Source: Myxococcales bacterium
GTDB taxonomy: Bacteria; Myxococcota_A; Polyangia; Polyangiales; JAFGIB01
Assembly: GCA_050118535.1 (NCBI GenBank)
Contig: JASFKR010000001.1
Coordinates: 20,277-84,276, forward strand
Length of the DNA: 64,000 nt
Reading direction: 5' to 3'
This document shows positions 11,749 through 60,802 of this stretch, one piece after another. Position 1 is the stretch's first letter; each line of letters opens with the position of its first letter. The translations under genes were made by a program, and so were the position numbers. The notes beneath the pieces were generated by a model. It saw only the letters and a program-made list of their open reading frames with translations, searched no databases and was not told the DNA's origin.

Positions 11749-12755
<1,007 letters not shown>

Positions 12756-12759
<4 letters not shown>

Positions 12760-13700
12760 GCCCAGCCGCCCCCGCGCAGGTGGCGGTGCTCGACCAGGAG
12801 ATCGTCCAGCGCATCGCCACCCTGCGGTTGCGCGCGCGCCGCGCCGTCGAGGGGGTGCGCTCCGGCATCCACCGCAGCCCGCACCGGGGCGCGAGCGTGA
12901 TCTTTGCCGAGCACCGCGACTACCGCCCGGGCGACGACCTGCGCCTGCTGGACTGGCGCGCCTATGCGCGCAGTGATCGCTACACGATCAAGCACTTCGA
13001 GCAGGAGACGCACCTGCGCGCGCACCTGCTCTTCGACGTCTCGGGGTCCATGCGCTACGGCGGGGAGACCGCCCCGGGCAGCGGCACCCACCCTGGCGCC
13101 CTGGGAAAGCTCGACTACGCGGCGACCCTGCTGTCGGCGATGGCCTTCATCCTGCTCGGCCAGGCGGACGCCGTGGGCGTGCATACCCTGGGCGAGGGCG
13201 TGATCGACAGCCTGCAGCCCAGAGCCCGCCCGGGGCAGCTCGACGCGATCCTGCGCGCCCTGGCCGCGCCCCCCGACAGCGACGGCCCCACCCACTTGCA
13301 CGCAGCCCTGGAACAGTGCGCCGAACGCGCCGGCCGCAGGGCGCTGATCGTCCTCGCCAGCGACCTGCTCGACTTCGAGCCGAGCGCGCTCGAACCGCTC
13401 ACGCGGATGCACGCGGCGGGCCACGACGTCATCGTCTTCCACGTGCTGCATCCCGACGAGCTCGACTTCCCCTTCGAGGCGCGCTCGCGCTTCGTGGATC
13501 CGGAGAGCGACGAGATGCTGGACACCGATCCGGAGGCCGTCCGCGAAGCCTACATGGATCGGATGGGACACTTCTTGATCGACAGCCGCAAGCGCTGCAC
13601 CGCCGCGGGCGCGCGCTACGCCCTGGCGCGCACCGACGTGCCCGTACAGCAGGTGATCAGCGCCGTCCTCTCGGGCGGCACGGTGCGCACATGGGCCTAG
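12756..13700 (+). CDS. DUF58 domain protein (MoxR partner)
   Basis: GTGA start/stop overlap with moxR. Motif HRSPHRGASVIFAEHRDYRPGDDLRLLDWRAYARSDRYTIKHFEQE is the DUF58 signature. Confidence 0.85.
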
Positions 13701-15703
13701 AGACACCCCTGGCGCTGCTGGGTTTGCTGGCGGCCGGCTTGCCACTTCTGGTGCACCGGATCCGGCGGCGGGACCTGGTGCCCATCCCGCTGCCCACCTT
13801 CGCGCTGCTGCACCAGGCCGAGGCGCGCAAGCGGCGCAGCCGCGGCCTCACCGACCTGCTCCTTCTCATCCTTCGCGTCGCCATCATCACCCTGGCATGC
13901 CTGGGCGCCGCCGCGCCCTACGTCACGGCGCGCCTGAGCTTCGGCGACGGCAGCCTCGCCAGCGTGGCGATCGTGATCGACGACTCCATGTCGATGATGC
14001 GCAGGGAGGGCAGCAGCACGTTGCTTTCGATGGCCGTGGAGAAGGCGCGCGAGGCCATCGACTCACTCCCGGAAGGCTCGGAGGTGGCGCTGGTGGCGGC
14101 CTCACGACGGCCGCGCGTGTTGCTGCGCCGGACCGACACCCTGTCGCTGGCGCAGGTCGAGCTCGACGGCATCGACGACGAGTCCATGCGCGGCACGGAC
14201 CTGAAGGGCGCGGTGGAGTTGGCGCTGGGCCAGCTTTCCGCAGCGCAACACCAGAACCGCCGCATGCTCATCATCAGCGACCTGGCCGCCCACGGCGGCC
14301 TCGATCCTCGAGACCTGGCCCTGGAGGGCGTCGAGGTGACCGTCGAGCGCGTCGGCAGCCCGGAGCCTCCGGTCAACGTGCACTTCGTGTCCGCCAGCGC
14401 CTTGCCTGACCCGACCACGCCGGGTCAGACATCGCTGGCCTTCGAGCTGGCGGCCGACGGCGAGACGCCGGCACCGGTGCCGGTGCGGGTGCGCAGCGGT
14501 GACCGGGAGGTCGCCCGCGCCGAGGTGACCCTGGTCGACGGGCGGGGTCGCACCACGGTGCACGTGCCCACGCCCGGGCGCGAGCAGGACCCCGCGGCCC
14601 TGCTCGAGATCGAAAGCCACGATGCGCTCGCCGAGGACAACGTGATGGGGGTGCTGCTGCGGCGTGCTGACGCGCTGCAGGTGATGTTCGTCAACGGCGA
14701 CCCGCACCCCGCCAGCGACGCCGACGAGCTCTACTACGCCCAGGCCGCGCTGCGCCTGGCGCCCACCTCGACCGGCGCCCTGTCTCTGCGCACGGTCGAT
14801 GCCAGCGTTCTGGGCAAGTACGACCTCTCGGGCACCGACGTGGTGGTGATGGCGAATGCGCCGGCACCTCGACCGGGGGTGGCGGCACGGCTGAAGGACT
14901 TCGTCCGTGACGGCGGCGGGTTGGTCATCAGCGCCGGCGACCGCGTCGACCCCCGCGCCTACAACGCCGCGCTGGGACCGGTGCTGCCGTGCCGGCTGCT
15001 TTCGCGAGGCGGCGGCGCGGCACTCGACATCGACTCCGGCAGCGGCGGGCCGCTGATGCCGGGTGGTCCCAGCGGGCTGTCGAAGGTGACCGTCGCGCGT
15101 CGGCTCATGCTGGAATGCGAGCACGGCGCCCAGCTCACCTTCGACGACGGCGCCCCGGCCGTGGCCGTGGGCGAAGCCGGACGCGGGCAGGCGGCGATCC
15201 TGGCGACCTCCCTCGACGACGACTGGAGCGACCTGCCCCTGCGGCCGGGCTACCTCCCGCTGCTGGTCAACCTCTTGCGACACACCTCGCGCACGCACGA
15301 TCTCCAGAGCGGACCGGTGCAACCCGGCGCCACGGTGCGGATCCCGGTGCCGCCGGGTGCCGCCCGCCTCGAGGTGGTGACCCCCGCAGGTCTCCGTCGA
15401 CGCTACGACGACCTGGACGACGAGAGCCGCGTGGAATTCTCTGACACGCGCGCCGCGGGCCCCTATCGCGTGATGGTGTCGAGCGCCGGTGGCGCCCTGG
15501 TCGACGCCCCGCGCGGCGCCTTCGTCGTGGAAGCCCCCCGTGACGAGAGCGACCTGACGCCCGACCCGGAGGCTCGCCAGCTGGTCTCGGGGGAACGGGG
15601 CGGCGGCGGCGCCACCGTGCACCGCTCATTGGCTTCGCTGATCTTCCTGCTGTTCGGGGTGGTGGTGATCGGCGAGGGGCTGGTCCGCCTGCGCCGGGGC
15701 TGA
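13691..15703 (+). CDS. BatA-like membrane protein: aerotolerance-regulator N-terminal domain + vWA domain + C-terminal anchor
   Basis: Start ATG 13691 (MGLETPLALLGLLAAGLPLLVHRIRRR), overlapping the DUF58 stop. MIDAS-like VAIVIDDSMSM. C-terminal TM segment LIFLLFGVVVIGEGL. Confidence 0.8.
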   Translation: MGLETPLALLGLLAAGLPLLVHRIRRRDLVPIPLPTFALLHQAEARKRRSRGLTDLLLLILRVAIITLACLGAAAPYVTARLSFGDGSLASVAIVIDDSMSMMRREGSSTLLSMAVEKAREAIDSLPEGSEVALVAASRRPRVLLRRTDTLSLAQVELDGIDDESMRGTDLKGAVELALGQLSAAQHQNRRMLIISDLAAHGGLDPRDLALEGVEVTVERVGSPEPPVNVHFVSASALPDPTTPGQTSLAFELAADGETPAPVPVRVRSGDREVARAEVTLVDGRGRTTVHVPTPGREQDPAALLEIESHDALAEDNVMGVLLRRADALQVMFVNGDPHPASDADELYYAQAALRLAPTSTGALSLRTVDASVLGKYDLSGTDVVVMANAPAPRPGVAARLKDFVRDGGGLVISAGDRVDPRAYNAALGPVLPCRLLSRGGGAALDIDSGSGGPLMPGGPSGLSKVTVARRLMLECEHGAQLTFDDGAPAVAVGEAGRGQAAILATSLDDDWSDLPLRPGYLPLLVNLLRHTSRTHDLQSGPVQPGATVRIPVPPGAARLEVVTPAGLRRRYDDLDDESRVEFSDTRAAGPYRVMVSSAGGALVDAPRGAFVVEAPRDESDLTPDPEARQLVSGERGGGGATVHRSLASLIFLLFGVVVIGEGLVRLRRG

Positions 15704-25224: not shown

Positions 25225-28200
25225 TCAGCCGTCGAGTGCCCGACGCAGGGCCTCGGCGGTGTGGCTGCGCTTGCGCTCGAGGATCTTCTCCGGGACGCCC
25301 TGGGCCACGATCCGCCCGCCGCCCTCGCCCCCCTCGGGACCCAGGTCCACGATCCAGTCGGCGCGCACCATCACGTCCGGATGGTGTTCGATGATCACCA
25401 CCGTGTCGCCGCGGTCGACGAGTCGATCGATCACGTCGAGCAGTCGGGCCACGTCCTCTCGGTGCAACCCGGTGGTCGGCTCGTCCATGACGTAGAGCGT
25501 GCGCTTCTTGCCCGCTGCGTTGAGCTCCGACACCAGCTTGAGGCGCTGGGCCTCGCCGCCGCTGAGGGTGTTGCTGGGCTGTCCCAGCTTCAAATAGCCA
25601 AGCCCCAGATCCGACAGCAACGACAGGGGGCGCCGCACCTTCGGGAAAGCCGTCAGCAGCTCCGCCACCTCGTCCACGTCCTTCTCCAGCAGCTCGCCGA
25701 TGCTCACACCGTGGAGCTGCACGGAGAGCGTCTCGGGATCGAAGCGAAGGCCGTCGCACGTCTCGCACGTCACCAGCGCGTCGGGCAAGAACGACATCTC
25801 GACGCTCGTGGCGCCCTGGCCTTCGCAATCCTCGCAGCGCCCCTTGGCCACGTTGAACGAAAATCGCGAAGCGTCGTAGCCGCGGGCGCGCGCCTGGGGG
25901 GTACTGGCGTAGAGCTTGCGGATCTCGTCGAAAGCACCCACGTAGGTCGCTGGCACCGAACGCGGGGTACGGCCGATGGGCGTCTGGTCGATCTCCACGG
26001 CGCGCATGACCGCGGGGGCACCCACCACCCGATCGTGCGCTCCGGGCGGCTCGCTCTCCAGCCCCAGACTGCGGCGCACCGCGCGCAGGAACACCTCGCG
26101 CACCAGCGTGCTCTTGCCCGAGCCGCTCACGCCGGTGACCACCGTCAGCCGCCCCACCGGAATGCGCAGATCGACGTTGCGCAGGTTGTGCTCCCGCGCG
26201 CCCCTGAGCTCGATCCATTGCACGTTGGGCGCCTTGGCTACCGGCCGCCGAGCCTCCGGCATGGTCAACGGGCGCGACAGGGAACGCCCCGTGATCGACT
26301 CGGGGCTTCGAAGCAGGCGCCCGGGCGTCCCCTCGGCCACGACGTGGCCACCGGCCTGTCCGCCGGTGGGTCCGATGTCGATCATGTGATCTGCAGCGCG
26401 GATCGTGTCGGCATCATGCTCGACCACGAGCACGGAGTTGCCCTGATCCACGAGCTCGCGCAGCGCGCGCAAGAGCCGCCCCGTATCCCGCGGGTGCAGG
26501 CCAATGGTGGGCTCGTCCAGCACGTACAACACGCCCGTGAGACCGCTTCCGAGCTGTGCCGCGAGGCGTACCCGTTGCATCTCGCCGCCGCTCAGCGTCC
26601 AGGCCGCCCGATCCAGCGACAGGTAGGACAGGCCCACGCGCTCCAGGAAGCGCAGGCGAAGCAGCGCTTCGGAGACGGGCACGTGCGCCACCTCGGCGGC
26701 CTTGCCCTCGAGCTTCACGCGCGACAGCCGCTCACTGGCCGCCCGCACCGACAGTGCGAGCAGCGACGTGATCGGCTCGCCGTCGAGTGTCGTGTGCAGG
26801 GCGAGCCCGGCCAGGCGGCTACCACCGCAGTGCGGGCAGGTCTTCAGCTCGGGGTCGACCCGCCCCCTGCGACGCCGGCGACGGACCGCCTCCACCTGGC
26901 CGCGGCCCTCGCAGGTGGGGCACGCGCCCTGTCGTGTGTTGAAGGAGAAGAAGCGCGGATCGGGCTCGGGAAAGCCCGTGCCGCAGGAGGGGCAGCCCCG
27001 ACTGCTCGACAAGAGCAGCCAGTCCCGGCCCCGGTGCACGTGCGCCGCACCGTCCCCATCCCGCAGGGCCCGGCCCAGGAGCTCGCGCACCTCGGCGCTG
27101 GCGTCGGCGCGGACCTGCCCCAGGCAGATGGCCACGTCATGCTCGCGGTAGCGGTCGAGCTTGAGCCCGGCGACGAGTTCCCGCAGCTCGCCGTCGATGC
27201 GCGCCCGGGTCGTGCCGGAGGCCCGCGCGCGTTCCAGAATGTCCCGGTGGGCGCCCTTCTGCCCGCGCACCACCGGCGCGAAGACCTCCACCCGCTTGCT
27301 GCCGAATCGCTGCTTCACGTCACCCACCATCGCCTCGAGCGAGCGCGGCTCGATGGGCACCTCGCAGTCCGGGCAGTGCAGCACGCCCGCCCGCGCGTAG
27401 GCCAGGCGCAGGTAGTGGGCGACCTCGGTGACCGTGGCGACGGTGGAGTTGCGCCCGCCGCCGGTCTGGCGCTGTTCGAGGGACACGCCCGGGGGCACCC
27501 CTTCCACGCGGTCCACGTCCGGCCGTGGCAGCTGCTTGATGTATTGCCGGACGTAGGGCGACAGGGTCTCGAGATAGCGCCGCTGGGACTCGGCGTAGAC
27601 CACGTCGAACGCCAGGGTGCTCTTGCCGCTGCCGCTGGGGCCCGTCACCACCACGAGCGCGTCGCGCGGGATGCTCACTTCCAGTCCCTTGAGGTTGTGC
27701 TCGCGCGCACCGTGGACGGTGATCGCGTGGGCCTCCGGACGACGCGCTTTCTTCGCCGTCCGCCTGCCACCGCCATGCGGCCGTCTCGAGGCGAGTGCTG
27801 CCTTCAGAAACGGCGCCGTCGCCGACTCGGCGCTGGCTGCCACCTCTTCCGGTGTGCCGCTGGCGACGATGCGACCACCCTCCTCGCCCGCGCCTGGGCC
27901 CAGGTCGACCACGTGGTCCGCGCGCGCCGCAAGCCGCATGTCGTGCTCCACGACGACCACGGTGGCGCCGCGCTCCACGAGCCCGTCGATGGCGTCGATC
28001 AGGGGCTCGATATCGGAGCTGTGCAGCCCTGCCGTGGGCTCGTCGAGCACCACCAAGCTGGTCTCGTCCACCTCGCCCAGGGCCGACGCCAGCTTCAGGC
28101 GCTGTGCCTCGCCGCCGCTCAGGGTGTTGAGGGGTTGACCCAGGGTCAGGTAGCCGGCCCCCGCCTCGCACAGGGCCCGCAGTCCGGCGACTGACCTGCC

Positions 28201-30585
28201 CAGCACGTCGTCGAAGCGCTCGAGCGCCTGGGCAGCGGTCAGCTCGAGCAGATCCGCCGCGCTCAGCCCGTCGAGTCGCACGTCGAGCACCGGCCCCACG
28301 AACCGGCGCCCACCGCACTCGGGGCAGTCGAAGCGCACGTCGGCGAGAAACTGCATCTCCACGGTCTCGGCACCGTCACCCTTGCAGGCCTCGCAGCGTC
28401 CACCGGGAACGTTGAAGGAAAACATTCCGGCCTTGTAGCCGCGGGTGCGGGCGAGCTCGGTGGACGCCAGCTTCTTGCGAAAGGCATCCCATACCCCCAG
28501 GTAGGTGGCGGGGTTGCCCCGCGAGGTGCGGCCCAGGGGAGCCTGGTCCACCTCGACGAGCCGCCGGACGCCCCCGAGCCCCGATAGGCGGTCGTGCTCG
28601 AGCGGTCTCGGAGCCGGCTGCTTCACCGCCCGCGCCACCGCGGGAACCAGCGTCTCGGCCACCAGGCTGCTCTTGCCCGAACCACTCACCCCCGTGACGC
28701 AGGTCAGCGCGCCGAGTGGCAGCTGCAAATCGACGCCCTGCAGGTTGTGACCGCGTGCGCCCTTCAGAGAGAGCGTGCCGCGCGGTCGCCTGCGCTCGCG
28801 CGCGCCCGCCCTCGCCCGCGCGCGCAGGGCCCTGCCGGTGGGAGTCTTGGCCCGCGTCAGCTGCACCGGGCTTCCGTCGAAGACCACCCGGCCGCCGGCC
28901 TCGCCTGCGCCGGGCCCCAGCTCCACGACCCGGTCGGCGGCACGTACGAAGCTCTCGTCGGACTCCACGACCAGCACCACGTTGTCGCCCCGCGTCAGCC
29001 GCCGCACCGCGGGCAGCAACCGCTGCACGTCGGCCGGGTGCAGGCCCACCGTGGGCTCGTCGAGGGCGAAGAGCGTGCCGCGTAGTCCGGAGGCCAGGCC
29101 GCTGGTCAGACCCACACGCTGAAGCTCGCCTCCCGAGAGGCTGCGCGCGGTGCGGTCGAGGGTGAGGTAGCCCAGGCCCACGTCACGCAACGTCCGTAGC
29201 CGCGAGGCGGTCTCGTCGAGCACGCGCGCGGTCGTCACGTCGTGCTCCCGTTCGCTGGCAACGCGTTCGATCACCTCCGCGGCGCGCGTCACCGGAAGCG
29301 CGAGCATCTCGGAGATGTTGCGCCCCGCCACCTTCCAGCCGAGGGCTTCGGGCTTGAAACGACTGCCTCCGCAGGCTGCGCAGGGCTCGTACTTGCGATA
29401 CCGCGACAGCAGCACGCGCACGTGCATTTTGTAGGCCTTGGTCTCCAGCCAGGCGAACCAGCGCCGCAGGCCGGGGAAGCCATTGCGCCATCCGCCTCCG
29501 TCGCCCTCGATCAAGGAAGCGCGCTGCGCGGCCGTCAGTCGTCGCAGGGGCACGTCCATGGGGATGCCCTGACGCTTGCAGTGCCGCGACAGCAGGCGTC
29601 GCTCCCACGTGGTCGCGCGCCCGTTCCAGGGGCGAACCGCGCCCTCCTTCAGGCTCAGGTCCTCATCCGGAAACACCTTGTCCCAGTCCACCGCGATGGT
29701 GCGGCCGAACCCGCGACAGGTCTCGCACGCCCCCACCGGACTGTTGAAGGAGAACAGCCCGGGCGAAGGTTTGCGAAAGCTCGCGCCACAGCCATCGCAG
29801 CGCAGACCGCGCGAGACGTCGATCAGCTCACCCTCCGGGCTTGCGATGCGCGCCTGCCCGGAGCCGCGCTCGAAGGCAGCCTCCACCGCCTCACTCAGTC
29901 TCCCCCGGTCGCGCTTGCGCGTGGTGGTCCGGTCGGCGACCACCTGCAGCATGGGCGGTTCGCTGCGCCGTCTTTCGGCGCCACCGAGCGCCTCGCTGGG
30001 TGGGATCTCGTCCAGGTCCCTCACGCGACCGTTGAGCCACAGCCGTCGATAGCCGGCCCCCAACAGCGACTCTCGGACGGAGAGGTAGTCCTCTTCGGAG
30101 AGCACACTCACGGGGTAGCTCACGACCACCCGCCGCTCGGGCAGCCGTTCGGCGGCGAGAGTGGCCGCGGAGCTGGGCGAGAGGGGCCGCACGGGTGCGC
30201 CGCAGTGGGGGCAGTCGAGCTCGGCCCGCGATGCCCAGAGCTGCTTGAGGTAGTCGCTGAGCTCGGTCAGCGTCGCCACGGTCGATCGACTCGTCTTGAC
30301 GGTGCCGCCACGGTCGATCGCGATCGACGCCGGCATCCAATCCAGGTCGTCGAGCGGCGGTCGGGCCAGACGTTCCAGGAATTGCCGCGCATAGGCGCTG
30401 AAGCTCTCGACGTAGCGACGCTGCCCCTCGGCGTACAGCGTGCCGAACACCAGCGACGATTTGCCGGCGCCCGAGGGCCCGCAGACCACGACCAGGCTGC
30501 CTGGCTGCAGGGTCAGGTCCACCCCTCGGAGGTTGTGGGTGCGGGCGCCGCGGAGCTCGATGGGGTGCATGGGGGCCGGGAGCAT
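25225..30585 (-). CDS. uvrA: tandemly duplicated UvrA-like ABC ATPase (four nucleotide-binding sites; start 30585, 30570 or 30645)
   Basis: Four Walker A sites: [40 protein letters not shown]. Four LSGGE signature motifs. Each half has its own set of Cys4 zinc modules (e.g. [30 protein letters not shown], then [30 protein letters not shown]). Confidence 0.9.
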
Positions 30586-30645
30586 AGCACCGCTGCCGCG
30601 CGCCGCCCGCGGGCCGGTGGCCGCCGTATACGGTATGCTTCCCAC

Positions 30646-31389
30646 ATGGACCTTCGCACGACTTGCCTGCTCGTCGGCGCAGCCATGCTGTGGCTCGGCG
30701 CCTGCAGCGACGACTCCGGTAGCGACGCGCCGCTGGCGCCGGGCGGTGGCACCAGCACCACGCGCTCGGGCGGCTCCACGCCACCCGCCGACGCCGGGGG
30801 CGGCACCGACGACGAGGACGCGGGCAGCGACGACGGCCCCGTCGACCCGGTCATCGCCCGCGAGTGCATGGCGGTGGACCCCGTGGATTTCATGGGCGAG
30901 GACATGCCCCTCGACGGCAGCTTCTACAACACGGTCACGCTGCCGGACGACTTCACCGTCACGCGGGTGGAAACCACATGGGGCGAGGACTGCGCGACAC
31001 CGACGATCCGCCTGCTCATGTCGACCGGGCGATGCTCACAGCCGGGCGATCACGTGCTCGAGATCGCGATGGAGGCCGACGCGATCGACCGGCGCGACCT
31101 CGTCGTGGGCCAGAACGTGGTGCAGCCCGCGCCGGCCGATCGCGGGCTGCAGGTGCGTTACACGCGCCCGTCCGGGCGGTCGCCTTCCGGCACCTGGGGC
31201 AACTGCGAGGGCGCCGACGGCAGCGTCGACTTCATCGCGCTGGGGACGGATGCGCGCGACGACCTTCAGGCACAGTTTCAGTTCTTGCTGACGCCGTGCG
31301 ACGATGAGACGGCGGGAACCCAGTCGGTCCAGGGCACCTTCGATGTGGTGTTGCGGCGCGGCGTCGACGACGCCTGCCCCGCCGAGTGA
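30646..31389 (+). CDS. Cys-containing lipoprotein, function unknown
   Basis: Start ATG 30646. Signal plus lipobox MDLRTTCLLVGAAMLWLGAC, followed by a Ser/Asp/Gly linker. High GC3. Divergent from the uvrA-like gene. Confidence 0.65.
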   Translation: MDLRTTCLLVGAAMLWLGACSDDSGSDAPLAPGGGTSTTRSGGSTPPADAGGGTDDEDAGSDDGPVDPVIARECMAVDPVDFMGEDMPLDGSFYNTVTLPDDFTVTRVETTWGEDCATPTIRLLMSTGRCSQPGDHVLEIAMEADAIDRRDLVVGQNVVQPAPADRGLQVRYTRPSGRSPSGTWGNCEGADGSVDFIALGTDARDDLQAQFQFLLTPCDDETAGTQSVQGTFDVVLRRGVDDACPAE

Positions 31390-31412: not shown

Positions 31413-33638
31413 CTAGCGCAGGCCCCAGGCGCGGCGCGCGGCCCATTCGGCTGCGAAGACCAGCGCCACCCACAGGAAGAACCAGGGCGACGCGAAGGGG
31501 GCGTGGACGGCGGTTCCCAGGGCGCGGGCGCGCGTGCGGTCGAGAGCGTCCAGGTCGGGCGGATCACCTTCGCGAAAGTGCTCGCCGCCGGTGACCGCTG
31601 CCACCTCGGCGAGCACCTCCGGGCGCGGCTGGGGGTCGGCAAGCTCGTCGCCTCCTGCCTCCACCACGAAGCCCTCGTCGGCGAGCTCCTGCCCGGTGTC
31701 GGGATCGCGCACGGTCACGCGGTAGCCGCCCGGCGCCTCGGGCGCGAGCAGCTCCACACTGGCCTCGCCGGCGGCGTCGCTGACCACCCGCTGCTGACTG
31801 ACGACGCCCCCGCTGCCGTCCATGATCAGCACCTCGAGCGACTCGCTCGACAGCGCCTGGTAGCGCGCGTCTCGCAGCCGCGCCTGCGCCCGCACCCGCG
31901 CGCCGGGCCCGTAGCGCTCCCGGTCGGTCTGCACGCGGGCGGGATCCAGAGACGGATCGCGCGCCAGCCAGCGCAGCGACCGATCCCAGAAACGCTCGTA
32001 GGCCGAGGGGTCACCGGTGCGCCCGGCCGTGGCCATGCCCCAGCGCCAGCTCGCATCGACGCCCAGCGCCATCACTCGGCCCTCGCCGGCGCTGCCCACC
32101 ACGAGCACCGGCATGGGCCCGCCGTCGCCGTCGCGCTCCGTCGGGTGGCTCAGTAGCGTCAGCCCGTCACCCCGAACGCCCGCCAGGCGGTTGGCGCCAA
32201 GCAGCGGGGCCAACGTGCGCCAGGCCGCCAGGTTCTGCGCCGGGTCGGGCACCAGCTCCACGATCGGGTGCCGCGCGGTTTCCTCCTCGAGCACGGGCCG
32301 GAACTCGCCCGTGGTCACCGCGTTCTCTCCGGGCAACATGCGCACCGGCAGGATGTCGGCGATGGCGGTGCGGATGTAGCCGCCGGCTCCGAACGCCCGG
32401 TTGCCGCCGATCATGGCAAAGGCGCCGCCCCCGCGGACGTAGTCGCGAACCCGCGGCAGGTAGCGGGCCATCTGGTAGGGGCCGTAGTTGAAGTCCTGGA
32501 AAATGACCAGGTCGAAGCTGTCCAGGTGCTCGCGGAAGAGCTCGTCGGTCGGGAAGGGAATCAGCGACAGTTCCTCGGGCGGCGCCATGGTCAGGTCGGT
32601 CGCAGTGCGGAGGATGAAGAAGGTGATCAGGTCGATGGCTGGATCCGACTTGAGGAAGGCGCGCAAGAAGCGGGTGTCCCAGCTCGGCGCACCGCACACG
32701 AGCAGCACCCGCAGCTTGTCGCGCGTCACGCGCACCAGAAACGCCCGCTCGTTGTTCTCCGGGACCGAATCCTCGGCCGACAGCGGCACCGACAGGGTGT
32801 AGACGGAGCGCCCCAACCGCTCGGGCGTGAACGGCAGCGTCACCGTCCCCTCGCCGTGCTCGTCGAGCTCCGCGGCCGCCTCGGCCACCACCTGGTCGTC
32901 CCGGCGCAGGGTGACCATCAGCGCCTGGTCGCTGGCGCGCGTCGAACGCACCGTGACCTCCACCTGGGCAGCCTGGCGCAGGAAGCTCACGGGGTCGGCG
33001 CGAACGCGCACGATGCCGTCGTCCACCAACGTGCGGTCGGAAGCCATGGCGAGGGTGTGCACGCGCACGCCCAGGCCCTCGAGCTGCGCGGGCGACCAGC
33101 CCGGGGCCATGTCGGCACCGTCCGACACCAGCAAGACCGCGCCCAGGTCGTCTCCGTAGTCCTCCGCCAGCCCCTCCAGCGCCCGCTGCACCCGCGTGTC
33201 GTCGTCCTTCGCCAGGCCGGCTTCCCCCAGTTCCGCCAGGTTGATGGGCCGCAGCTCGGAGCCAAACCCATACGAGTCGAAGGGCACGTCGGCATCCGCC
33301 GCCAGCGTCGACAACAATCCCCGCGCCCGCCCGGCGCGGGTCTGCAGACCATCGCGGATGGACATGCTGCGCGAGACATCCAGAAGCACCGCGAGCCGTC
33401 CCTGAACGTTCTCCACGCGCTCGGTGATCCACTCCGGTTGCAGCGCGAGCATTGCGGCCATCAGCACGCCCAGGAGCCGTAGCCCGAGCAGCGCGATGCG
33501 GCGCCCCGTGCCCTGGACGCGCAGCGTCTGTGGAACGCCCGCGGCAGCCACGACCAGCAGCGCGACGGCCAGCGCGATGCCCACCGTGGTGCCGCCCGGG
33601 TTGCCCAGGCGCAGGCTCCAGCTCGAGAGCTCCCCCAT
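31413..33638 (-). CDS. membrane protein with vWA domain and GATase1-like domain (Bat-like)
   Basis: N-terminal TM pairs. MIDAS-like LLDVSRSMS. Central LRVLLVCGAPSWDTRFLRAFL...FDLVIFQDF...GGGAFAMIGG is GATase1-like. C-terminal TM WFFLWVALVFAAEW. Confidence 0.7.
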   Translation of the reverse strand: MGELSSWSLRLGNPGGTTVGIALAVALLVVAAAGVPQTLRVQGTGRRIALLGLRLLGVLMAAMLALQPEWITERVENVQGRLAVLLDVSRSMSIRDGLQTRAGRARGLLSTLAADADVPFDSYGFGSELRPINLAELGEAGLAKDDDTRVQRALEGLAEDYGDDLGAVLLVSDGADMAPGWSPAQLEGLGVRVHTLAMASDRTLVDDGIVRVRADPVSFLRQAAQVEVTVRSTRASDQALMVTLRRDDQVVAEAAAELDEHGEGTVTLPFTPERLGRSVYTLSVPLSAEDSVPENNERAFLVRVTRDKLRVLLVCGAPSWDTRFLRAFLKSDPAIDLITFFILRTATDLTMAPPEELSLIPFPTDELFREHLDSFDLVIFQDFNYGPYQMARYLPRVRDYVRGGGAFAMIGGNRAFGAGGYIRTAIADILPVRMLPGENAVTTGEFRPVLEEETARHPIVELVPDPAQNLAAWRTLAPLLGANRLAGVRGDGLTLLSHPTERDGDGGPMPVLVVGSAGEGRVMALGVDASWRWGMATAGRTGDPSAYERFWDRSLRWLARDPSLDPARVQTDRERYGPGARVRAQARLRDARYQALSSESLEVLIMDGSGGVVSQQRVVSDAAGEASVELLAPEAPGGYRVTVRDPDTGQELADEGFVVEAGGDELADPQPRPEVLAEVAAVTGGEHFREGDPPDLDALDRTRARALGTAVHAPFASPWFFLWVALVFAAEWAARRAWGLR

Positions 33639-33641
33639 CGG

Positions 33642-34436
33642 TTACCTCTGGCCCGCGCGCCGCCGCATGATGATGGGCGAGTGGACCTGGTCGTCCTTGT
33701 AGTCCAGGCACAGGGCGTAGAGCACCAGGTTGACGCCCAGGCGAATCGCCCTCTCGCGCTGGCCGCTGCCGCCGGGCTGCACCGGGTAGCGAAAATTTCC
33801 GAGGTTGTCCCGGTCCCAGGCGCCGCCCAGATCGTGGCGCGAGTAGATGACGGCGGCCCGACCGCCGCGCTCGACGGCCTCCAGGTTCTCGGGTCCCTCG
33901 ACCCGACCGTAGGGTCGCTGCAGCAGATAAAAGGAGCGGTAGACGGTGTGGTTTGCCGGCAGCGGCAGCAAAGCCCCTTCACCAAAGGCCCGGTCCAGGG
34001 CACGGCGCACGCTGCGATCGAAGCCGTCCTGGTCCGGCGACGCGTCGTCGATCAGCACGAAGCCCCCGAACTCGACGAAGCGGCGCAGACCGGTGATCTC
34101 CGCGTCGCTCAGCGGTTCGAAGGAGCGCTCGCCGCTCCAGTAGACGAACGGCGAATCGAAGAGCGAGGGATCGTCGAGCCGCACGTCGGTCGGCTCCAGC
34201 AGGGTCTCGACGCTGGTGCGCTGGCGGATCTCCCACGCCAGGCGGCGGGGCGCGCTGGGACGCGGCGCCACACTGCGCCCCGCATGCACCACGCTGCGGA
34301 TGTCGAGCGCCGTGGCGACGCCGATGGCGTCCGCGGGTGGTGGGCCCAGCAGCCACGGCCCGAAGGCGGTGGCCAGGAACGCCAGCAGCGAAACACACAC
34401 CGGCGGCCACACCCGGCTCTGCGCGGTCGCGCCCAT
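33642..34436 (-). CDS. DUF4159 domain protein (start uncertain: 34436 or 34478)
   Basis: FVYWSGERSF..LSDAEITGLRRFVEFGGFVLIDD...HTVYRSFYLL...AAVIYSRHDLGGAWD...AIRLGVNLVLYALC matches my recollection of the DUF4159 pattern. Its stop lies 3 nt before the next gene's start. Confidence 0.65.
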   Translation of the reverse strand: MGATAQSRVWPPVCVSLLAFLATAFGPWLLGPPPADAIGVATALDIRSVVHAGRSVAPRPSAPRRLAWEIRQRTSVETLLEPTDVRLDDPSLFDSPFVYWSGERSFEPLSDAEITGLRRFVEFGGFVLIDDASPDQDGFDRSVRRALDRAFGEGALLPLPANHTVYRSFYLLQRPYGRVEGPENLEAVERGGRAAVIYSRHDLGGAWDRDNLGNFRYPVQPGGSGQRERAIRLGVNLVLYALCLDYKDDQVHSPIIMRRRAGQR

Positions 34437-34542
34437 CGCTCTCACGCCGGGGAGGTGAGCACAGCCCCGCATGCGCATCAAGCCGAAGCGCCAGGCAGGC
34501 TGGCGTTGCCGGGCGCGGCCGGATCGCCGATGATGCGCGTCC

Positions 34543-35697
34543 ATGACCCGCGGACGATCGGTGGCGCCGATCCTGTGCATGCTGCTGACGGCGGCCTGCG
34601 ATCCGCGGGCGGATGCGTCTCCCGCGCCCACGGTCCCGGCACCGAGCCCAGGTAAAGCCCCGAGCAAAGCCCCGAGCAAAGCCCCGAGCAAAGCCCCATC
34701 CAGGGTGGAGGCGCCGACCCCGGAGGCCGCAGCCGAGGAGCCCCTCTTCCGCCGCTCGCGTCAAATGATGGGCACGATCATCGCGATCACCGTGGTCGGG
34801 CAGCCGGACGCCGTGGCGGCGCCGGCGGTCGACGCCGCCTTCCGCGAGATGGAGGGGCTGGAGGCGATCCTCAGCGAATGGCGGCCAGACAGCGAGATCT
34901 CCCGCATCAACGCCGCCGCCGGCAAGGGACCGGTGAAGGTCGGCGAGCACACCCTGGCCGTGGTTCGTGCGGGCCTGGAGGTCTCGCGCTGGAGCCAGGG
35001 GGCCTTCGACCTGTCCTGGGCGGCGCTGCGGGGCATGTACACGTTCCAGCCGGGCGAGGAGACCGTGCCGGACGCGGAGGCGCTGGCGAGCAGGCTGCCC
35101 CTGATCGACTATCGCCGGATCGAGCTCGACGAGAAGAAGCACACGGTGGAGCTGCTCGACGCGGGGATGAAGATCGGAACCGGGGGCATCGCCAAGGGTT
35201 ACGCCCTCGACCAGGCTGCAAAGGTCCTGCGAAAAGCGGGCATCGATCGCTTCATGCTCTTCGGCGGTGGCCAGGTGCAGGTCTCCGGGCAGCGCAAGGC
35301 CGGCCGCGGCTGGCGGGTGGGAATTCAGCACCCCCGGAAAGATGACTACTTCGGTTTCATCGAGGCCACGTCGGGGTCCATTTCGACCTCCGGGGACTAC
35401 GAGCACGCATTCATCAAGGACGGCCGGCGCTGGCACCACATACTCGATCTGAAGACCGGCCTACCGGTCGAGCACACCACGTCGGTCACCGTCCTGGCCG
35501 ACTCCGGGCTCTATGCCGACGCGGTATCGACGGCGATCTTCGCGCTGGGCGCCGAGCGCGCCTGGCCGCTGCTCGCAGACGCCCCGGGTAACCCGCGCGT
35601 GGTCCTGGTGGACCGGGACATGCGGCTGCACGTGACGGAAAACCTGGGCAAGGGCCTCGTGCTGCGGACCGAGCTGAAGGACGGGCGCCTGCCCTGA
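34543..35697 (+). CDS. apbE: FAD:protein FMN transferase ApbE (lipoprotein)
   Basis: Lipobox CMLLTAAC. MGTIIAITV, GGIAKGYALD, SISTSGDYEH. Confidence 0.88.
   Translation: MTRGRSVAPILCMLLTAACDPRADASPAPTVPAPSPGKAPSKAPSKAPSKAPSRVEAPTPEAAAEEPLFRRSRQMMGTIIAITVVGQPDAVAAPAVDAAFREMEGLEAILSEWRPDSEISRINAAAGKGPVKVGEHTLAVVRAGLEVSRWSQGAFDLSWAALRGMYTFQPGEETVPDAEALASRLPLIDYRRIELDEKKHTVELLDAGMKIGTGGIAKGYALDQAAKVLRKAGIDRFMLFGGGQVQVSGQRKAGRGWRVGIQHPRKDDYFGFIEATSGSISTSGDYEHAFIKDGRRWHHILDLKTGLPVEHTTSVTVLADSGLYADAVSTAIFALGAERAWPLLADAPGNPRVVLVDRDMRLHVTENLGKGLVLRTELKDGRLP
34654..34698. repeat. 12 bp tandem repeat (AAAGCCCCGAGC x3 plus a partial copy) encoding (KAPS)n in the ApbE linker
   Basis: Direct reading of 34654-34698. 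Confidence 0.85.
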
Positions 35698-39262: not shown

Positions 39263-40989
39263 TCCGCCAACCGCTGACGACCCTCATCACCCTGCTCCCC
39301 TGCCTGGCGATCGCCGGTTGCGGGGCGCCCCCGCAGCAGCCCAAGGGACCGCGGGCAATCGAAATCCGCCTGCCCGGACCGCTGACGGAGTCACCGGAGG
39401 CGAGTCTCTTCGCGGCCACGGCCACGACGCACCACCGGTTGCTGGAGCGGCTGCACGACATCGCGCAGGACGACGAGCTGCGCGGGCTTCTGCTACACGT
39501 GCCCGAGATGGGCGACGCCTTCGCGCGCGCGGCCGACCTGCGCAACGCGCTCGAGGCCGTGCGCGAGGCCGGCAAGCCGGTGCACTGCTACTTCGAGAGC
39601 ACCGACAACCTGGGCTACGCCCTGATGGCCGCCGGCTGCGAGCGCATCAGCGCGACGCCGAGCGGCCTGCTGAACCTGGTGGGGCTGGCCGCCGAGGCGC
39701 TCTACGTCAAGGAGCTACTCGATCGCGTGGGCGTCCGCGCCGAGCTGATGCAGGTGGGTCGCTTCAAGGGGGCCGCCGACACCTTCACCCGCACGGAGAT
39801 GCCGCCGGAGGTCCGCCAGACGCTCGACGCCATGCTCGACGACCTGCACGGTAGCCTGCTGTCGGCCATCGCCGAGGGACGCGATCTGTCCAACGCCCAA
39901 GTGCAGTCGCTCGTGGACGACGGCCCCTACACCACCCCGCTGGCGCGCCAGGCCGGTCTGATCGACGACGTGGGCTTTGACGACGAGGCGCGGGAGCACC
40001 TGCGGGAGGCCGCCGACGTGAAGCACGTGGAACACGAGGCGCTGGGTGGCGAGAAAAAGGAGGTCGGGCTTTCGGACCTGCTGAAAGCCCTGAGCGGCGG
40101 TGAGAAGGATGCGAAGCCATCCGGCCGGCGTCTGGTCGTGGCCAACCTGGAGGGGACGATCATGCGAGGCGACGAGCGCAGCCTGCAGAGCGCCCACGCC
40201 GTGCCCTTCGTGGAGGCCTTGCGCGGGATGGCCGACGACGACGACGTGCGCGCCCTGGTGCTGCGCATCAACTCGCCGGGGGGCTCGGCCACCGCATCGG
40301 ACCTGATGTGGCACGCCGTCCGCCGCGTGGCCGCCCGCAAGCCGGTGATCGTGTCGGTGGGCGACATGGCAGCCTCGGGTGGTTACTGGGTGGCATCCGC
40401 GGGGACACGTATCCTGGCCGACGAGAGCAGCCTGATCGGATCCATCGGCGTGGTCGGCGGAAAGATCGTGATCGAGGATCTGGGACAGCGGGTGGGGCTG
40501 CGCAGCACGCGCCTGAGCCGCGGGGAGCGCGCGGGCTGGATGAGCTCGCTGCACGGCTTCGACGCCGGCGAGCGCGAGGCCTTCCGCCGCTCGCTCGAGT
40601 ACACCTATCGCCTCTTCCTGCGCCGGATCTCGCAGGGGCGTGGGATGGATCGCGCCGCCATCGAGCCGCTGGCCGAAGGTCGGCTGATGACGGCTCGCAG
40701 GGCGCTCGAGGGCGGGCTCGTGGATCGCCTCGGTGGGCTACGCGAGGCCATCGCCCTGGCTCGCGAGGAGGCCGAACTGCCGGACGACGTCGAGGTGCAA
40801 GTCTGGCCCCCGCAGCACACCTTCCTGCAGCAGATCGCCAGGCTCGCATCGGGCGCCGATGCCCGGAGTCTGGCGCTGCAGCAGCTCCGAGGCGCAGCCG
40901 CCGCCGACCCACGGGGCCTGGTGGAGGCGCTGGTGGCAGGTCGCGACACCCACATCGCCGCCCTGCCCTACCAGCTGTCCATCCACTAG
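39259..40989 (+). CDS. sppA: signal peptide peptidase SppA (lipoprotein form)
   Basis: GTGA overlap with the upstream stop. Lipobox LAIAGC. Two ClpP-like halves, with INSPGGSATASD and GDMAASGGYWVA. Confidence 0.9.
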   Translation: MIRQPLTTLITLLPCLAIAGCGAPPQQPKGPRAIEIRLPGPLTESPEASLFAATATTHHRLLERLHDIAQDDELRGLLLHVPEMGDAFARAADLRNALEAVREAGKPVHCYFESTDNLGYALMAAGCERISATPSGLLNLVGLAAEALYVKELLDRVGVRAELMQVGRFKGAADTFTRTEMPPEVRQTLDAMLDDLHGSLLSAIAEGRDLSNAQVQSLVDDGPYTTPLARQAGLIDDVGFDDEAREHLREAADVKHVEHEALGGEKKEVGLSDLLKALSGGEKDAKPSGRRLVVANLEGTIMRGDERSLQSAHAVPFVEALRGMADDDDVRALVLRINSPGGSATASDLMWHAVRRVAARKPVIVSVGDMAASGGYWVASAGTRILADESSLIGSIGVVGGKIVIEDLGQRVGLRSTRLSRGERAGWMSSLHGFDAGEREAFRRSLEYTYRLFLRRISQGRGMDRAAIEPLAEGRLMTARRALEGGLVDRLGGLREAIALAREEAELPDDVEVQVWPPQHTFLQQIARLASGADARSLALQQLRGAAAADPRGLVEALVAGRDTHIAALPYQLSIH

Positions 40990-41048
40990 CAAGCTGCAAC
41001 CGCGTTCGCCCGCCGCGGCGGGCGGGCGTCTGCTATCCTCGGCTCTCC

Positions 41049-44000
41049 ATGGATGGCCGGCCGCTGGACGCCAGTCCCCTGGCAGCGCTTCTGCTGGACC
41101 TCGCCGCGCGGCGCGCGACGGGGCGGTTGGCGTTCGGCGGCCGCGCGGTGCTGCTGCGCCGCGGCGAGCTGCTCGACGTGCTGCCCGCCGCCGACGACGC
41201 GCCACTGGCGCGCTATCTGGTGGAGGGCGGTCGTATCAGCGCCGACGGGCTGGAGCGCTTTCGGGCGCGGGCGGAGCGCGAGCGGACCAGCCTGCTCGAC
41301 TTGCTGCAGCAGGAGGGGGCCATCGCGGCCGACATCCTGGAGGAGGCGCGTCGTGACGTGCTGCTCGACCGGCTCCTGCGCGGCCTGCAGTCCTCCGAAA
41401 GACACGACGAGCCCCTCCCCGTGCTCGAGCCTGCCCCGGAAGCCGGCGATGCCTCCGCCGCGCCCCAAGACCTGGTGGGTGCAGTGCTATCGACGCTCAC
41501 ACGGGAGGCGCAGGGGAGCGCCACGGACGCACTCAGCTCCGCCTTGAATCATCGGCTGACGTTGCGTGCCGGCGAGCACCAGGAACGCGCCCGCGCGTTC
41601 TGCAATCTGGAACCGGCACCCGAACGGCCCGCCGTCGCCACGATCCTGGCCCGCGACCCCAGCGCGGCGGCACGCGTGATGGCCTTGCTGCGGGCTGGCC
41701 TGGCCACCCTCTCGCCACCGGGTCACTCCCACCCATCCGAGCAACGCGGGGGAGGCACACTTCCCCCGGCGCCGATGCGGAGTTCGGCGTTCCCCACCGG
41801 GGTGACGTCCGCGCCGCCACCGGGCGACGACCCCCTCGCCGGCCTGTCCGAACGACCGCCACGCACGCGGCTGGACCCCGGCCTGGCCGACGCCTCCACC
41901 GAGCCGCTGTCACCGACCCCCCTGCCTCGTCTACCCGAGCCGACGTTGGCGCTCGACGATCCCATGCGGCCGCTCGAGCAGAACCTGCAGGCGCTCGAGG
42001 CGCGTGGCGCCCCAGGCCCCGAGCGCGCACGGGTGCTACGCGCGATGGCCGAGATTTGGCGAACGCGCTTCGGTTCCGTGGAGCGGTCGTGTCGCTGGTT
42101 GCGCGAGGCCGTGGCCGCCGACCCGGACGATGCGCGCTTGCTCGAGCAGACGGCGTTGTGTTGCCACCACATGGGCGACCCGGAGCTGGCGGCGCGCTAC
42201 GCGGAAGCGGCCGTCGCCATGGCCGGAATCTCGATCGAGCGCGCCAGCGCACAACGTCTGCGAGCGACCGTGCTGCGCGCGTCCGGAGACGCCGACGGTG
42301 CAGTGGAGGCACTCTGCGAGGCGGCGGCCGACGATCCCACGAGCCCCGAGCCCCACGAACTGGTTGCGGGCGTCCTGCTGGCGCGCGGCAATGCCGAAGG
42401 CACCAACGCCCACGCGCGACTCGCCGCGGCGGCCCACCAGGACGCCGATCCCGAACGGGCCCGCGCGCTGCTCGACTGGGCTTGGTCGCTGCAGCCCACG
42501 AACGTACCCACCACGGTGGAGTATGCCTCGCTCCTCGACATGACAGGACGACGCACCGGCGCGGTCGCAGTGCTGGCTGAAACCGCCGCGCGCAGCACCG
42601 ACCCCGACGGCAGACGCAAGTTGCGTCTGGCGGCGGCACAGAGGGCGGAGGCTGCCGAGCGCCCCGACATGGCCGCAGAGCTGCTGCGCGAAGCGTTCGA
42701 CGTGGAGCCGCATTTCGATTTGCTCTACGCACCGCTCGAGGAAGACCTCCGCGATGCGGTCGAGCCGGCGCTGCACGCCGCCGTGATCGAAGACATCGCC
42801 TCCGCCTGCCCCGACGGTCAGCGCGCCCACTGGCTGACGCGGGCAGCACATGCCATGGCGCGGGTGGAGGCAGGCCACGAGGCGGCTGCGTGGCTGTTCT
42901 ACGAGGCCATGCTCACGGATCCGATGCAGGCACAGGCCCTCGACGGCCTGCGCGCGCACGCTCGCTCGCGACGGGAGCTGCTGCTGCTCGCGCACGCGCT
43001 GCGGACGCACATCGCAGCGGGCCTGGGCGGCGGCCTGGACATGTCCTCCGAGTTGCGAACCCTCGGGGAGATTGCCGAGGAGCAACTTCACAACCCCGAC
43101 CTGGCCCTCGCGGCATTCACGCAGCTGCGACGCCTGGGAGGAGGCGACGAGGCAATTGACGCGCGCGCGGACCGCCTCGCTGAAACATGCGAGGAACGTC
43201 GTGAGCGGCTCGCGGAGGCCGAGAGCGCATTGCGCGCCGCGACGCCGGAGCAGCGCGCCGGCCGGGCCGTCGAGGTCGCAGGGCTGCTGCCGGACCTACC
43301 GGAGGAATGGCCGCGCACCGTGTCGCTGCTGCGCGACGCCCACAGGGCCGAGCGGCTGCGCGGCAGGGACCGGGAGAGGCTCGAAACGCTGCTTGGGCTG
43401 AGTCGAGACGCCGAGGCGTTGCTCGATCACCTCGAGAGCGAGAGCGAGCACGCCGGTGCGCTCGACGAGCGGCTGCGGCTGCTGCATCGCATCGCGGCGG
43501 TCCACACGGTGCGCGGTGACGCCCGCAAGACGGCAATCACCGCCGAACGCATCTTGGCACAGGCCCCCGGGGACGCCCTGGGCCTGGCCCGGCTGGAGCG
43601 CGCCGGACGACGGCTGCGCGACCCAGACCGCATCGGCCGCGTTCTCGCACTTCGGGCCGACGCGGAAAAGCAGCCCGCACGCCGCGCTCGCACGCTGGCG
43701 CGGCTCGCGCGCTTGCAGGAATCACTGCACGAAGAGGGTGAAGCTGCGAAGCATGCCGCACAGGCGCTCTCACTCGATGCGACTGCGGCGGACGCGGCGC
43801 TGGTGCTCCTGCGTACCGCACACATGCTGCCCGCGGGGCAGGCCCTGCCGGCCGTGCGCCGCGCGGCCGACGCGCTGGGCGTGTCCCGCCGCCTGTGTCG
43901 AGTCTGGTCCACGGCCGCCACCACTGCCGGCGACCGGGCAGCGACGCAAGAGGCTTTGGAGCGCTGGGTGAGAGTGTTGCCCATGGATGTGGAAGCGCGA

Positions 44001-49226: not shown

Positions 49227-49292
49227 GTTCCAGCCCTCGCGAGCGGGAGTGTATCCGGCCTCGCCTGCAGTGCAACGACCCGCCCAAATTGA

Positions 49293-49324
49293 CCGAGGGG
49301 CCGCGTACGGACGCAGCCCCTCGG
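49293..49324 (-). other. 9 bp GC stem-loop between pilQ and aroKB
   Basis: CCGAGGGGC (49293-49301) pairs with GCCCCTCGG (49316-49324), with a 14 nt loop. The minus strand is followed by tcaatttggg, a poor T-run. Confidence 0.4.
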
Positions 49325-49348
49325 AAAGGACGAAACCGTCGCGGAGGC

Positions 49349-51517: not shown

Positions 51518-51576
51518 GGAGCTCTCCTAATGCTGACTAGTCCCGCTGATTTTCCGATGCCGGAGCGCCCCAACGC

Positions 51577-51656
51577 AAAAAACTGGTGCATGCACCGTCC
51601 GACACTGCCCTGCTGCCCGCAAACGAGAACGGGCGGCGAGTCCAAACCCGCCGCCC
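51577..51656 (-). other. two hairpins in the 168 bp pilP-pilQ spacer
   Basis: Read on the minus strand. First, GGGCGGCG-N10-CGCCGCCC (51631-51656). Then the palindrome GGTGCATGCACC (51585-51596), followed by AGTTTTTTG (A-run 51577-51582 on the plus strand). Confidence 0.35.
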
Positions 51657-51685
51657 GGTGAGCGTTCAGTCTACACAACGCCCGT

Positions 51686-52297: not shown

Positions 52298-52299
52298 GG

Positions 52300-52908: not shown

Positions 52909-52909
52909 G

Positions 52910-55693: not shown

Positions 55694-60802
<5,109 letters not shown>

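Follow-up and report, generated by a model that had tools for sequence, protein, structure and literature searches.

A tandem-fused UvrA with two unequal copies in one chain, a candidate single-chain pseudo-dimer from a Myxococcales bacterium

The 64,000-nucleotide stretch of DNA analysed here (contig JASFKR010000001.1 of a Myxococcales bacterium, positions 20,277 to 84,276 of the forward strand; hereafter the window) carries on its minus strand a gene for a tandem-fused UvrA, in which two UvrA copies, unequal in their inserted domains and in their ATP sites, follow each other in one polypeptide. We propose, with a probability of about 0.6, that this protein works as a single-chain, lopsided pseudo-dimer that would sense damage and dock UvrB through its N half. 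The large family to which it adds a new and fairly divergent member already goes by the name of UvrA in the databases; fused UvrAs are no rarity, and the point of interest is the conserved asymmetry between the halves.

Two unequal UvrA copies in one reading frame

The NCBIfam models name the window protein UvrA, NF001503 with 1868.5 bits (cut-off 1147) and TIGR00630 with 1809.6 bits (cut-off 729.8). Taken separately, each half still passes the cut-off of TIGR00630 (N half, 834.7 bits; C half, 980.6 bits) and misses that of NF001503 (865.4 and 1007 bits, respectively). Each half matches solved UvrA structures (E-values from 1e-211 to 1e-249), and Pfam matches the UvrB-interaction domain (PF17760) twice and the UvrA DNA-binding, or insertion, domain (PF17755) once. 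An earlier note on this DNA had described a head-to-tail duplicated UvrA in one polypeptide, which is borne out by the continuous reading frame and by the alignment of each half to solved UvrAs. The same note had named two observations that would speak against it, a stop codon between the halves and halves unlike UvrA outside the ABC motifs. Neither was made: the junction is read through without a stop codon, and the alignments are UvrA-like throughout.

The open reading frame (ORF) runs uninterrupted from 30645 to 25225 and has 1806 codons counted from a GTG, from which residues are numbered below. This GTG is unlikely to be the start of the gene because a divergent lipoprotein gene begins at 30646, its ATG abutting the GTG. 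To judge from the alignments, translation probably starts at Met21 or Met26, giving 1781-1786 aa. The end at 30585 given in the earlier note matches Met21, whereas the N-terminus of most of the 121 homologues aligned (see below) falls at Met26 (ATG 30570). The G+C content at third codon positions is 0.88, in line with the other genes in this window of 71% G+C.

With 1781-1806 aa, the chain is unlike canonical class I UvrA, a homodimer of ~940-aa subunits, in that it holds two unequal copies. In other respects it resembles class I proteins (E. coli b4058, 2R6F, 3PIH and the 9GXK series): the domain order is the same, and each half has two ABC modules (with Walker A, Walker B and LSGGE), three zinc modules and an insert of UvrB-binding type, to which the N half adds the insertion domain. 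The residues of the dimer interface and of the DNA wedge are kept too. A motif scan found four Walker A motifs and four LSGGE signatures (Table 1), four Walker B DEP motifs (aa 529, 868, 1377 and 1721) and twelve CxxC pairs, i.e., three zinc modules per half and six in total, so that the earlier counts of Walker A motifs, signatures and two sets of zinc modules stand. Conservation was assessed in an alignment of 121 sequences, made of the window protein and its clustered homologues of 1740-1855 aa (see below), to which the counts in this section refer. All four Walker A Lys are invariant, as are the four Walker B Asp-Glu pairs save for two Asp-to-Glu changes at the N-half proximal site (D119/E2). 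The LSGGE signatures do not vary among the homologues either. Among the zinc Cys, 23 of 24 are invariant and the 24th position is His in 11 sequences.

The modules differ in their inserted domains. The N module aligns end to end, both inserted domains included, with the UvrAs of T. maritima (3PIH, 1-915) and B. stearothermophilus (2R6F, 23-971). The C module matches 2R6F as two stretches (24-302 and 420-956) and leaves residues 303-419 unmatched. Where class I UvrA has its insertion domain, between the second and third CxxC pairs, the halves differ: in place of this domain, which spans 110-118 aa in the N half of all 121 homologues, the C half has a loop of 19-45 aa in all of them, with 34% Arg+Lys and a median net charge of +5. 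The earlier statement that both halves keep the inserted domains thus holds for the UvrB-binding-type insert (134 and 123 aa) and fails for the insertion domain, which the N half has (111 aa) and the C half has exchanged for a 24-aa loop.

For comparison at the level of residues, both halves were aligned to E. coli UvrA (b4058), with which the N half shares 39% and the C half 45-50% identity. Over the UvrB-binding region (E. coli positions 131-248), they have 112-123 match-state residues. The UvrB contacts R216 and E222 of E. coli UvrA, among the residues whose roles are known (Manelyte et al., PMC3025350), correspond in the N half to R249, present in 121/121 homologues, and E255, present in 119/121. 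In the C half, these positions are occupied by E1185 and G1191, and none of the 121 homologues has Arg at the position of R216. The pair typical of class I UvrA is therefore found once per chain, in the N half, and not twice. The UvrB-binding-type domains have the same level of conservation in the N half (mean pairwise identity 0.55) and in the C half (0.54), so that the altered C-half domain is still constrained. The DNA-binding Arg of E. coli (R712, R722, R724 and R730) are all four kept in the C half, and three of them in the N half, where R730 is Met; the equivalent of G502 is Ala in the N half and Gly in the C half. Least conserved is the linker between the modules (mean pairwise identity 0.34), which in the wider family has 22-69 aa (median 35) and is rich in Ala, Arg, Pro and Gly.

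The ATP sites are unequal as well. At the proximal site of the N half, the Q-loop Gln (E. coli Q87) is replaced by Arg in 121/121 sequences, whereas the other three Q-loops have Gln in 121/121. At the same site the H-loop His (E. coli H546) is Ser in the window protein; this position is Ser in 31 sequences, the window's included, and His in 87. The proximal site of the C half has Gln at the Q-loop and His at the H-loop, and the distal sites of both halves have the canonical residues in both loops.

Table 1. Window positions of the fused uvrA gene, its features and its divergent neighbour (residues numbered from the GTG)
Feature	Residues (aa)	Position	Strand	Basis or remark
Whole ORF and stop codon		25225..30645	-	probable coding sequence from ATG 30585 (Met21) or ATG 30570 (Met26), 1786 or 1781 aa
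N module, complete class I-type UvrA copy	26-950	27796..30570	-	structure alignments, TIGR00630
Walker A 1, GPSGAGKS, N-module proximal site	at 56	30457..30480	-	motif scan; Lys invariant
Arg112 replacing Q-loop Gln (E. coli Q87), N-module proximal ATP site	112	30310..30312	-	E. coli UvrA alignment
N-module UvrB-binding domain	149-282 (134 aa)	29800..30201	-	PF17760 match and E. coli alignment
R249 and E255, counterparts of E. coli R216 and E222	249, 255	29899-29901, 29881-29883	-	N-module UvrB-binding domain
N-module insertion (DNA-binding) domain	311-421 (111 aa)	29383..29715	-	PF17755 match
LSGGE signatures 1-4	at 503, 842, 1351, 1694	29125..29139, 28108-28122, 26581-26595, 25552-25566	-	motif scan
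Ser562 replacing H-loop His (E. coli H546), N-module proximal ATP site	562	28960..28962	-	VVESD, not VVEHD
Walker A 2, GVSGSGKS, N-module distal site	at 652	28669..28692	-	motif scan; Lys invariant
Inter-module linker	951-973 (23 aa)	27727..27795	-	least conserved segment
C module, UvrA copy without insertion domain	974-1806	25228..27726	-	2R6F alignment, TIGR00630
Walker A 3, GPSGSGKS, C-module proximal site	at 1002	27619..27642	-	motif scan; Lys invariant
C-module UvrB-binding-type domain	1095-1217 (123 aa)	26995..27363	-	PF17760, best stretch 1102-1204
E1185 and G1191, at the positions of E. coli R216 and E222	1185, 1191	27091-27093, 27073-27075	-	C-module UvrB-binding-type domain
Short basic loop replacing the insertion domain between two CxxC pairs	1246-1269 (24 aa)	26839..26910	-	alignments
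Walker A 4, GVSGSGKS, C-module distal site	at 1505	26110..26133	-	motif scan; Lys invariant
Predicted lipoprotein (247 aa), signal peptide with LGAC lipobox, no Pfam family		30646-31389	+	divergent from uvrA; begins MDLRTTCLLVGAAMLWLGAC

A widespread family and an ancient duplication

A search of 5.8 billion proteins gave more than 120 clusters of 1740-1855 aa, with 59-74% identity to the window protein and 98-100% query coverage. The named ones are nearly all from Myxococcota (Polyangiales, Sandaracinaceae, Sandaracinus amylolyticus), one bearing the older label Deltaproteobacteria bacterium, and the closest protein found is at most 74% identical. We also scanned the species genomes of GTDB, a collection that does not include the source genome, and obtained more than 591 relatives, of which the best 80 were examined. 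These are full-length (from residue 1 or 4 to ~1775-1781) and 42-64% identical to the window protein, the best of them (64%) coming from a metagenome-assembled genome (MAG) of Sandaracinaceae. They include Burkholderiales (Bordetella sp., Achromobacter sp. RTa, the complete genome of Neopusillimonas maritima, Limnohabitans, Pigmentiphaga and Zoogloea) as well as Myxococcota, Steroidobacteraceae, Nevskiaceae, Verrucomicrobiota (Luteolibacter, Prosthecobacter, Akkermansiaceae) and Lentisphaeria. In plasmid records, tblastn found a 1945-aa member on a ~2-Mb megaplasmid in 134 Ralstonia records, 43.9% identical to the window protein over 99% of the gene, and further members on secondary replicons of Burkholderia and Mycetohabitans. 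Full-length relatives occur in at least six phyla, including cultured Ralstonia, Achromobacter and Luteolibacter, and are named 'excinuclease ABC subunit UvrA' in RefSeq and UniRef. Two MAG contigs with members carry labels at odds with the remaining distribution, 'Coxiellaceae' (L010, 59% identity to the window protein) and 'Klebsiella pneumoniae' (L039, 45%), and these may be binning or naming errors.

The lopsided architecture and the placement in the family are common to all the named members that we analysed (from Ralstonia, Achromobacter, Neopusillimonas, Zoogloea, Luteolibacter, Lentisphaeria and Steroidobacteraceae). Fused relatives from Burkholderiales, such as the megaplasmid UvrA of Ralstonia solanacearum (QHB61293.1, 1945 aa) and those of Achromobacter (WP_043542437.1, 1920 aa) and Neopusillimonas maritima (WP_119441073.1, 1912 aa), are 100-160 aa longer than the window protein; a further fused relative is found in Ca. 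Kinetoplastibacterium crithidii (WBF65371.1, 1809 aa). Members of this Burkholderiales type share the window architecture, with 42-48% identity over residues 4-1779. Among the named fused members analysed, R216 is kept in every N copy and lost from the C copy except in Luteolibacter and Prosthecobacter. The Q-loop of the N half distinguishes the window protein and its Myxococcota relatives, with Arg, from the named Burkholderiales-type members, with Gln, and the H-loop Ser likewise sets the window's subclade against the Burkholderiales-type fused proteins.

Another double-length UvrA is represented by the 1809-position model NF001885 / PRK00635 ('excinuclease ABC subunit A'), which we take to have been built on the ~1786-aa chlamydial UvrA. 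Residues 413-1254 of the window protein align over the junction of this model (positions 390-1220). The score is 1066.1 bits against a cut-off of 3054, and the window protein is therefore not an equivalog of that family.

The earlier note had called duplicated forms rare, which does not hold. When we scanned 1.84 billion representatives of 50%-identity clusters with the C half (HMMER) and took the best 150 matches, ~130 of these were tandem UvrAs of 1500-2340 aa. We then sorted the 150 by architecture, aligning every copy to a profile of E. coli UvrA. The type found in the window, a complete copy with a copy lacking the insertion domain, accounts for 44 representatives, two complete copies for 42, and two class II-type copies, both lacking the UvrB-binding domain, for 23; the remainder are fragments. 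Within the window's type, R216 is present in 38/44 N copies and 13/44 C copies. The 23 tandem class II-type proteins, P0199 among them, have ~1590-1680 aa and keep the insertion domain. They may be what older reviews called duplicated UvrA. Goosen and Moolenaar reportedly defined a 'class III' of duplicated UvrA in DNA Repair in 2008. Two representatives, P0124 (2334 aa) and P0129 (2343 aa), have two complete copies up to about residue 1985, followed by ~350 further C-terminal residues.

A neighbour-joining tree was computed from 694 core columns of 157 half-sequences together with the UvrAs of E. coli, B. stearothermophilus and T. maritima. The window protein belongs to a group of 46 proteins in which the N copies come together in one clade and the C copies in a second. 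This group takes in Sandaracinus, a Polyangiaceae MAG, 'bacterium HR30' and Ca. Kinetoplastibacterium crithidii, whose gene lies on a contig of 816,901 bp (a 0.82-Mb endosymbiont genome); at least two further groups of tandem UvrAs are found elsewhere in the tree. For a bootstrap of 60 replicates, we used a test set of the window protein, Ca. Kinetoplastibacterium P0213, bacterium HR30 P0121 and P0230. The smallest clade with the N copies of this set was pure in 49/60 replicates, and that with the C copies in 34/60. Since copies of either type cluster with their own kind across the group, the duplication must long predate this organism, and the C copy seems to have shed its insertion domain when the lineage was already fused.

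With only 35-49% protein identity between the halves, the duplication is ancient and did not arise in assembly. The best DNA self-match is 64.5% over 919 nt, so that there is no near-identical repeat to mislead an assembler. That two neighbouring uvrA genes were misjoined, in the assembly or in gene calling, is hardly conceivable in view of this divergence, of a junction with neither stop codon nor change of frame, and of the same fusion in more than 120 protein clusters and 80 independent genomes, complete chromosomes and megaplasmids included. The sole apparent stand-alone C half, P0217 (854 aa), might have been taken for an unfused ancestor; its start lies 197 bp from the end of a contig whose gene order matches that of the window, and it is therefore a truncation.

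A candidate lopsided pseudo-dimer and its alternatives

In the cryo-electron microscopy structure of Ct-UvrA, residues of ATP-binding domain I form the dimer interface and the wedge that enters the bent DNA (PMC12796330). Their equivalents (E. coli R52, Y53, Y60, Q63, F64 and L505) are kept in both halves of the fused protein, family-wide, and this survival makes a covalent pseudo-dimer plausible. The N and C copies would pair inside one chain through their ATP-binding-I domains, mimicking the head-to-head UvrA2 dimer, and a single polypeptide would do the work of the dimer in ATP-dependent scanning of duplex DNA and in recognition of distorting lesions. The N module would contribute the only insertion domain and the only canonical docking residues for UvrB and Mfd (R249 and E255), and its proximal ATP site, with Arg in the Q-loop and Ser in the H-loop, would probably be a binding-only, regulatory site. 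The C module, with both ATP sites canonical, the four DNA-binding Arg and the short basic loop, would provide a second DNA-binding surface. Damaged DNA would be passed to UvrB docked on the N module. What the sequences show directly is the layout of the protein, its conservation and the family to which it belongs; from these we infer the intramolecular pairing, the dependence on UvrB and the consequences of the substitutions. The covalent pseudo-dimer suggested by the earlier note is thus supported as far as the interface residues go, and loses its symmetry: neither the insertion domain nor the UvrB-contact Arg is present in the C half, and the proximal ATP site of the N half is degenerate.

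According to kinetic measurements on normal UvrA2, damaged DNA suppresses hydrolysis at the proximal sites and promotes stable complexes with UvrB (PMC6486640). The proximal site of the N module, which has lost its Q-loop Gln and H-loop His, would fit in here as a built-in regulatory site occupied by ATP. Single-chain and heterodimeric ABC proteins, full-length ABC transporters for example, likewise go back to a duplicated and fused ABC unit in which one site has lost catalytic residues (Q-loop, H-loop) while its partner is canonical. The likeness extends to the way of working only, the function of the transporters being unrelated and fused UvrA having no membrane domains. Taken one step further, the asymmetry might make the protein a naturally 'heterodimeric' UvrA whose halves are bound to separate tasks. 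The N half would be a loader of UvrB or Mfd with the only insertion domain and a non-hydrolysing proximal site that is permanently ATP-bound, and the C half an ATP-driven motor and second DNA clamp. We hold this extension to be tentative and somewhat unlikely. If it were true, excision repair in these bacteria would work with one UvrB per sensor, loaded in a fixed orientation to it, unlike the textbook symmetric UvrA2B2.

Several points weigh against the proposed pseudo-dimer. The case for pairing within the chain consists of the conserved interface residues and the fusion itself. The C-half UvrB-binding-type domain, being as conserved as that of the N half, may bind UvrB via a changed interface, or another partner. 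Bootstrap support for the clade of C copies is only 57%, and our full-text literature searches found no experimental study of any fused or duplicated UvrA. The megaplasmid member of Ralstonia is labelled uvrA_2 in one record, and two genes are listed for Cupriavidus metallidurans CH34, uvrA1 (chromosome 1) and uvrA2 (chromosome 2) (PMC2864759). The Cupriavidus lineage may thus have the fused protein as an additional and perhaps specialised UvrA; the uvrA2 of CH34 (Rmet_4549), a putative fused form, was not found within the 150 kb examined (CHR2 980-1130 kb).

The interface residues would serve equally well if the chains paired N-to-C between molecules, in which case domain-swapped dimers or larger assemblies with eight ATP sites would form. 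Each half has a full dimerisation surface, the data fit pairing within and between chains alike, and the linker is as short as 22 aa in some members. We consider this arrangement unlikely, since the linker, with a median of 35 aa, is flexible, unconserved and rich in basic residues, Ala and Pro, resembling an intramolecular tether, and since the complementary specialisation of the halves, conserved across phyla, is easiest to maintain if N always meets its own C. Also unlikely, and much more so, is a role in drug resistance, in which the protein would be a DNA-binding ATPase that, like DrrC or Ecm16, clears natural products from DNA independently of UvrB. In its favour, myxobacteria make many DNA-active metabolites, and the Sandaracinus homologue has a polyketide synthase gene at a distance of ~6 kb. 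Class II UvrAs (D. radiodurans UvrA2, 2VF7; Ecm16, 7SH1; DrrC) are likewise UvrA-fold DNA-binding ABC ATPases, but they lack the UvrB-binding domain and act independently of UvrB. The window protein has this domain in both halves, which rules out UvrA2/class II identity and goes against a role in drug resistance, and the solved class II structures 2VF7 and 7SH1 score well below those of class I. Moreover, the family is present in organisms without such metabolism, an endosymbiont included, and no biosynthetic cluster lies in the 64-kb window, so that we rejected a self-resistance gene of such a cluster.

We see roughly even odds that the organism has no UvrA other than the fused protein, or that it has a canonical one as well, and we agree with the earlier note that the choice between housekeeping and accessory UvrA cannot be made from the window. 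We put at slightly under one half the chance of a second, specialised paralogue with a narrower job (particular lesions, stress or transcription-coupled hand-off) and with a canonical uvrA of ~950 aa elsewhere in the genome, which would be compatible with the pseudo-dimer. The location of members on secondary replicons in the Ralstonia records, Burkholderia and Mycetohabitans is in favour of such a paralogue, as are the uvrA_2 label and the pair of genes in C. metallidurans; Myxococcota genomes are large and rich in paralogues. The absence of ssb, uvrB and uvrC from the genes seen in the 64-kb window points the same way, and confirms the earlier remark that neither uvrB nor uvrC is adjacent. 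On the other hand, the N module invariantly keeps its UvrB-docking residues, unlike the known accessory class II UvrAs, and the locus is partly syntenic among relatives, with carA, dihydroorotase and T2SSE genes beside P0217 and a Bat operon next to the gene in Sandaracinus. The 0.82-Mb endosymbiont genome has kept a member, although a dispensable 5.4-kb paralogue is unlikely to survive there. This retention, the invariant docking residues and the housekeeping context (see below) favour a fully competent sensor, as does the case of Chlamydia trachomatis, whose only known UvrA has ~1786 aa. The GTDB scan gave only fused relatives, one per genome; protein searches rank double-length proteins first, as both halves contribute to the score.

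The fused protein offers a way around a difficulty of homodimeric UvrA, in which every mutation is doubled and the four ATP sites, two insertion domains and two UvrB docks are hard to separate. The number of UvrB molecules required in repair is still debated. In a natural single-chain UvrA whose symmetry is already broken, with a single insertion domain, canonical UvrB dock and degenerate ATP site, each element is separately addressable. To go by the existence of such proteins, one insertion domain and one R216-type dock per sensor appear to suffice in many lineages.

Genomic surroundings

The gene lies among housekeeping genes. Its context in the window includes genes for a PilB-like ATPase, a dihydroorotase-like protein, carA, a porin-like protein, a Bat/MoxR operon, ApbE, pilMNOPQ, an aroK-aroB fusion and groEL. 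Genes for MoxR, DUF58 and BatA/von Willebrand factor A (VWA) proteins are encoded at 11749-15703 (+), 10 kb to one side of uvrA, and DUF4159 and GATase1-like/MG2 genes on its other side, at 31413-34691 (-). In Sandaracinus amylolyticus (L002 1-8866), a full MoxR-DUF58-VWA-BatD-tetratricopeptide repeat (TPR) operon lies immediately upstream of the fused uvrA. The Bat/MoxR surroundings may be a loosely conserved neighbourhood of the gene. In the megaplasmid of R. solanacearum CFBP 8695 (L083 261-5762), the fused uvrA directly follows a gene on its own strand for an 1833-aa WGR-domain protein.

The 60-75 bp that separate the likely start of uvrA from that of the divergent lipoprotein gene (Table 1) contain a perfect 10-bp palindrome, CCGTATACGG, at 30624-30633. 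We considered it as an operator of the SOS/LexA type and discarded this idea, as the palindrome is not conserved upstream of 23 Myxococcota relatives.

Elsewhere in the window, at 47655-54606 (-), the aroK-aroB fusion (shikimate kinase/3-dehydroquinate synthase, 523 aa) adjoins a cluster of pilM, pilN, pilO, a gene for a 203-aa protein and the secretin gene pilQ. A 1702-aa regulator at 55694-60802 (-) combines a Ser/Thr kinase, a STAND-type AAA_16 NTPase, TPR, GAF, a sigma-54 activator and a Fis-type helix-turn-helix. The ORF of 2161 codons at 40308-46793 (+), with a sub-threshold TPR as its sole family match, failed the filter on G+C content by codon position and may be partly non-coding. A 535-aa protein encoded at 972-2579 (-) joins FHA, GAF and adenylate/guanylate cyclase domains.

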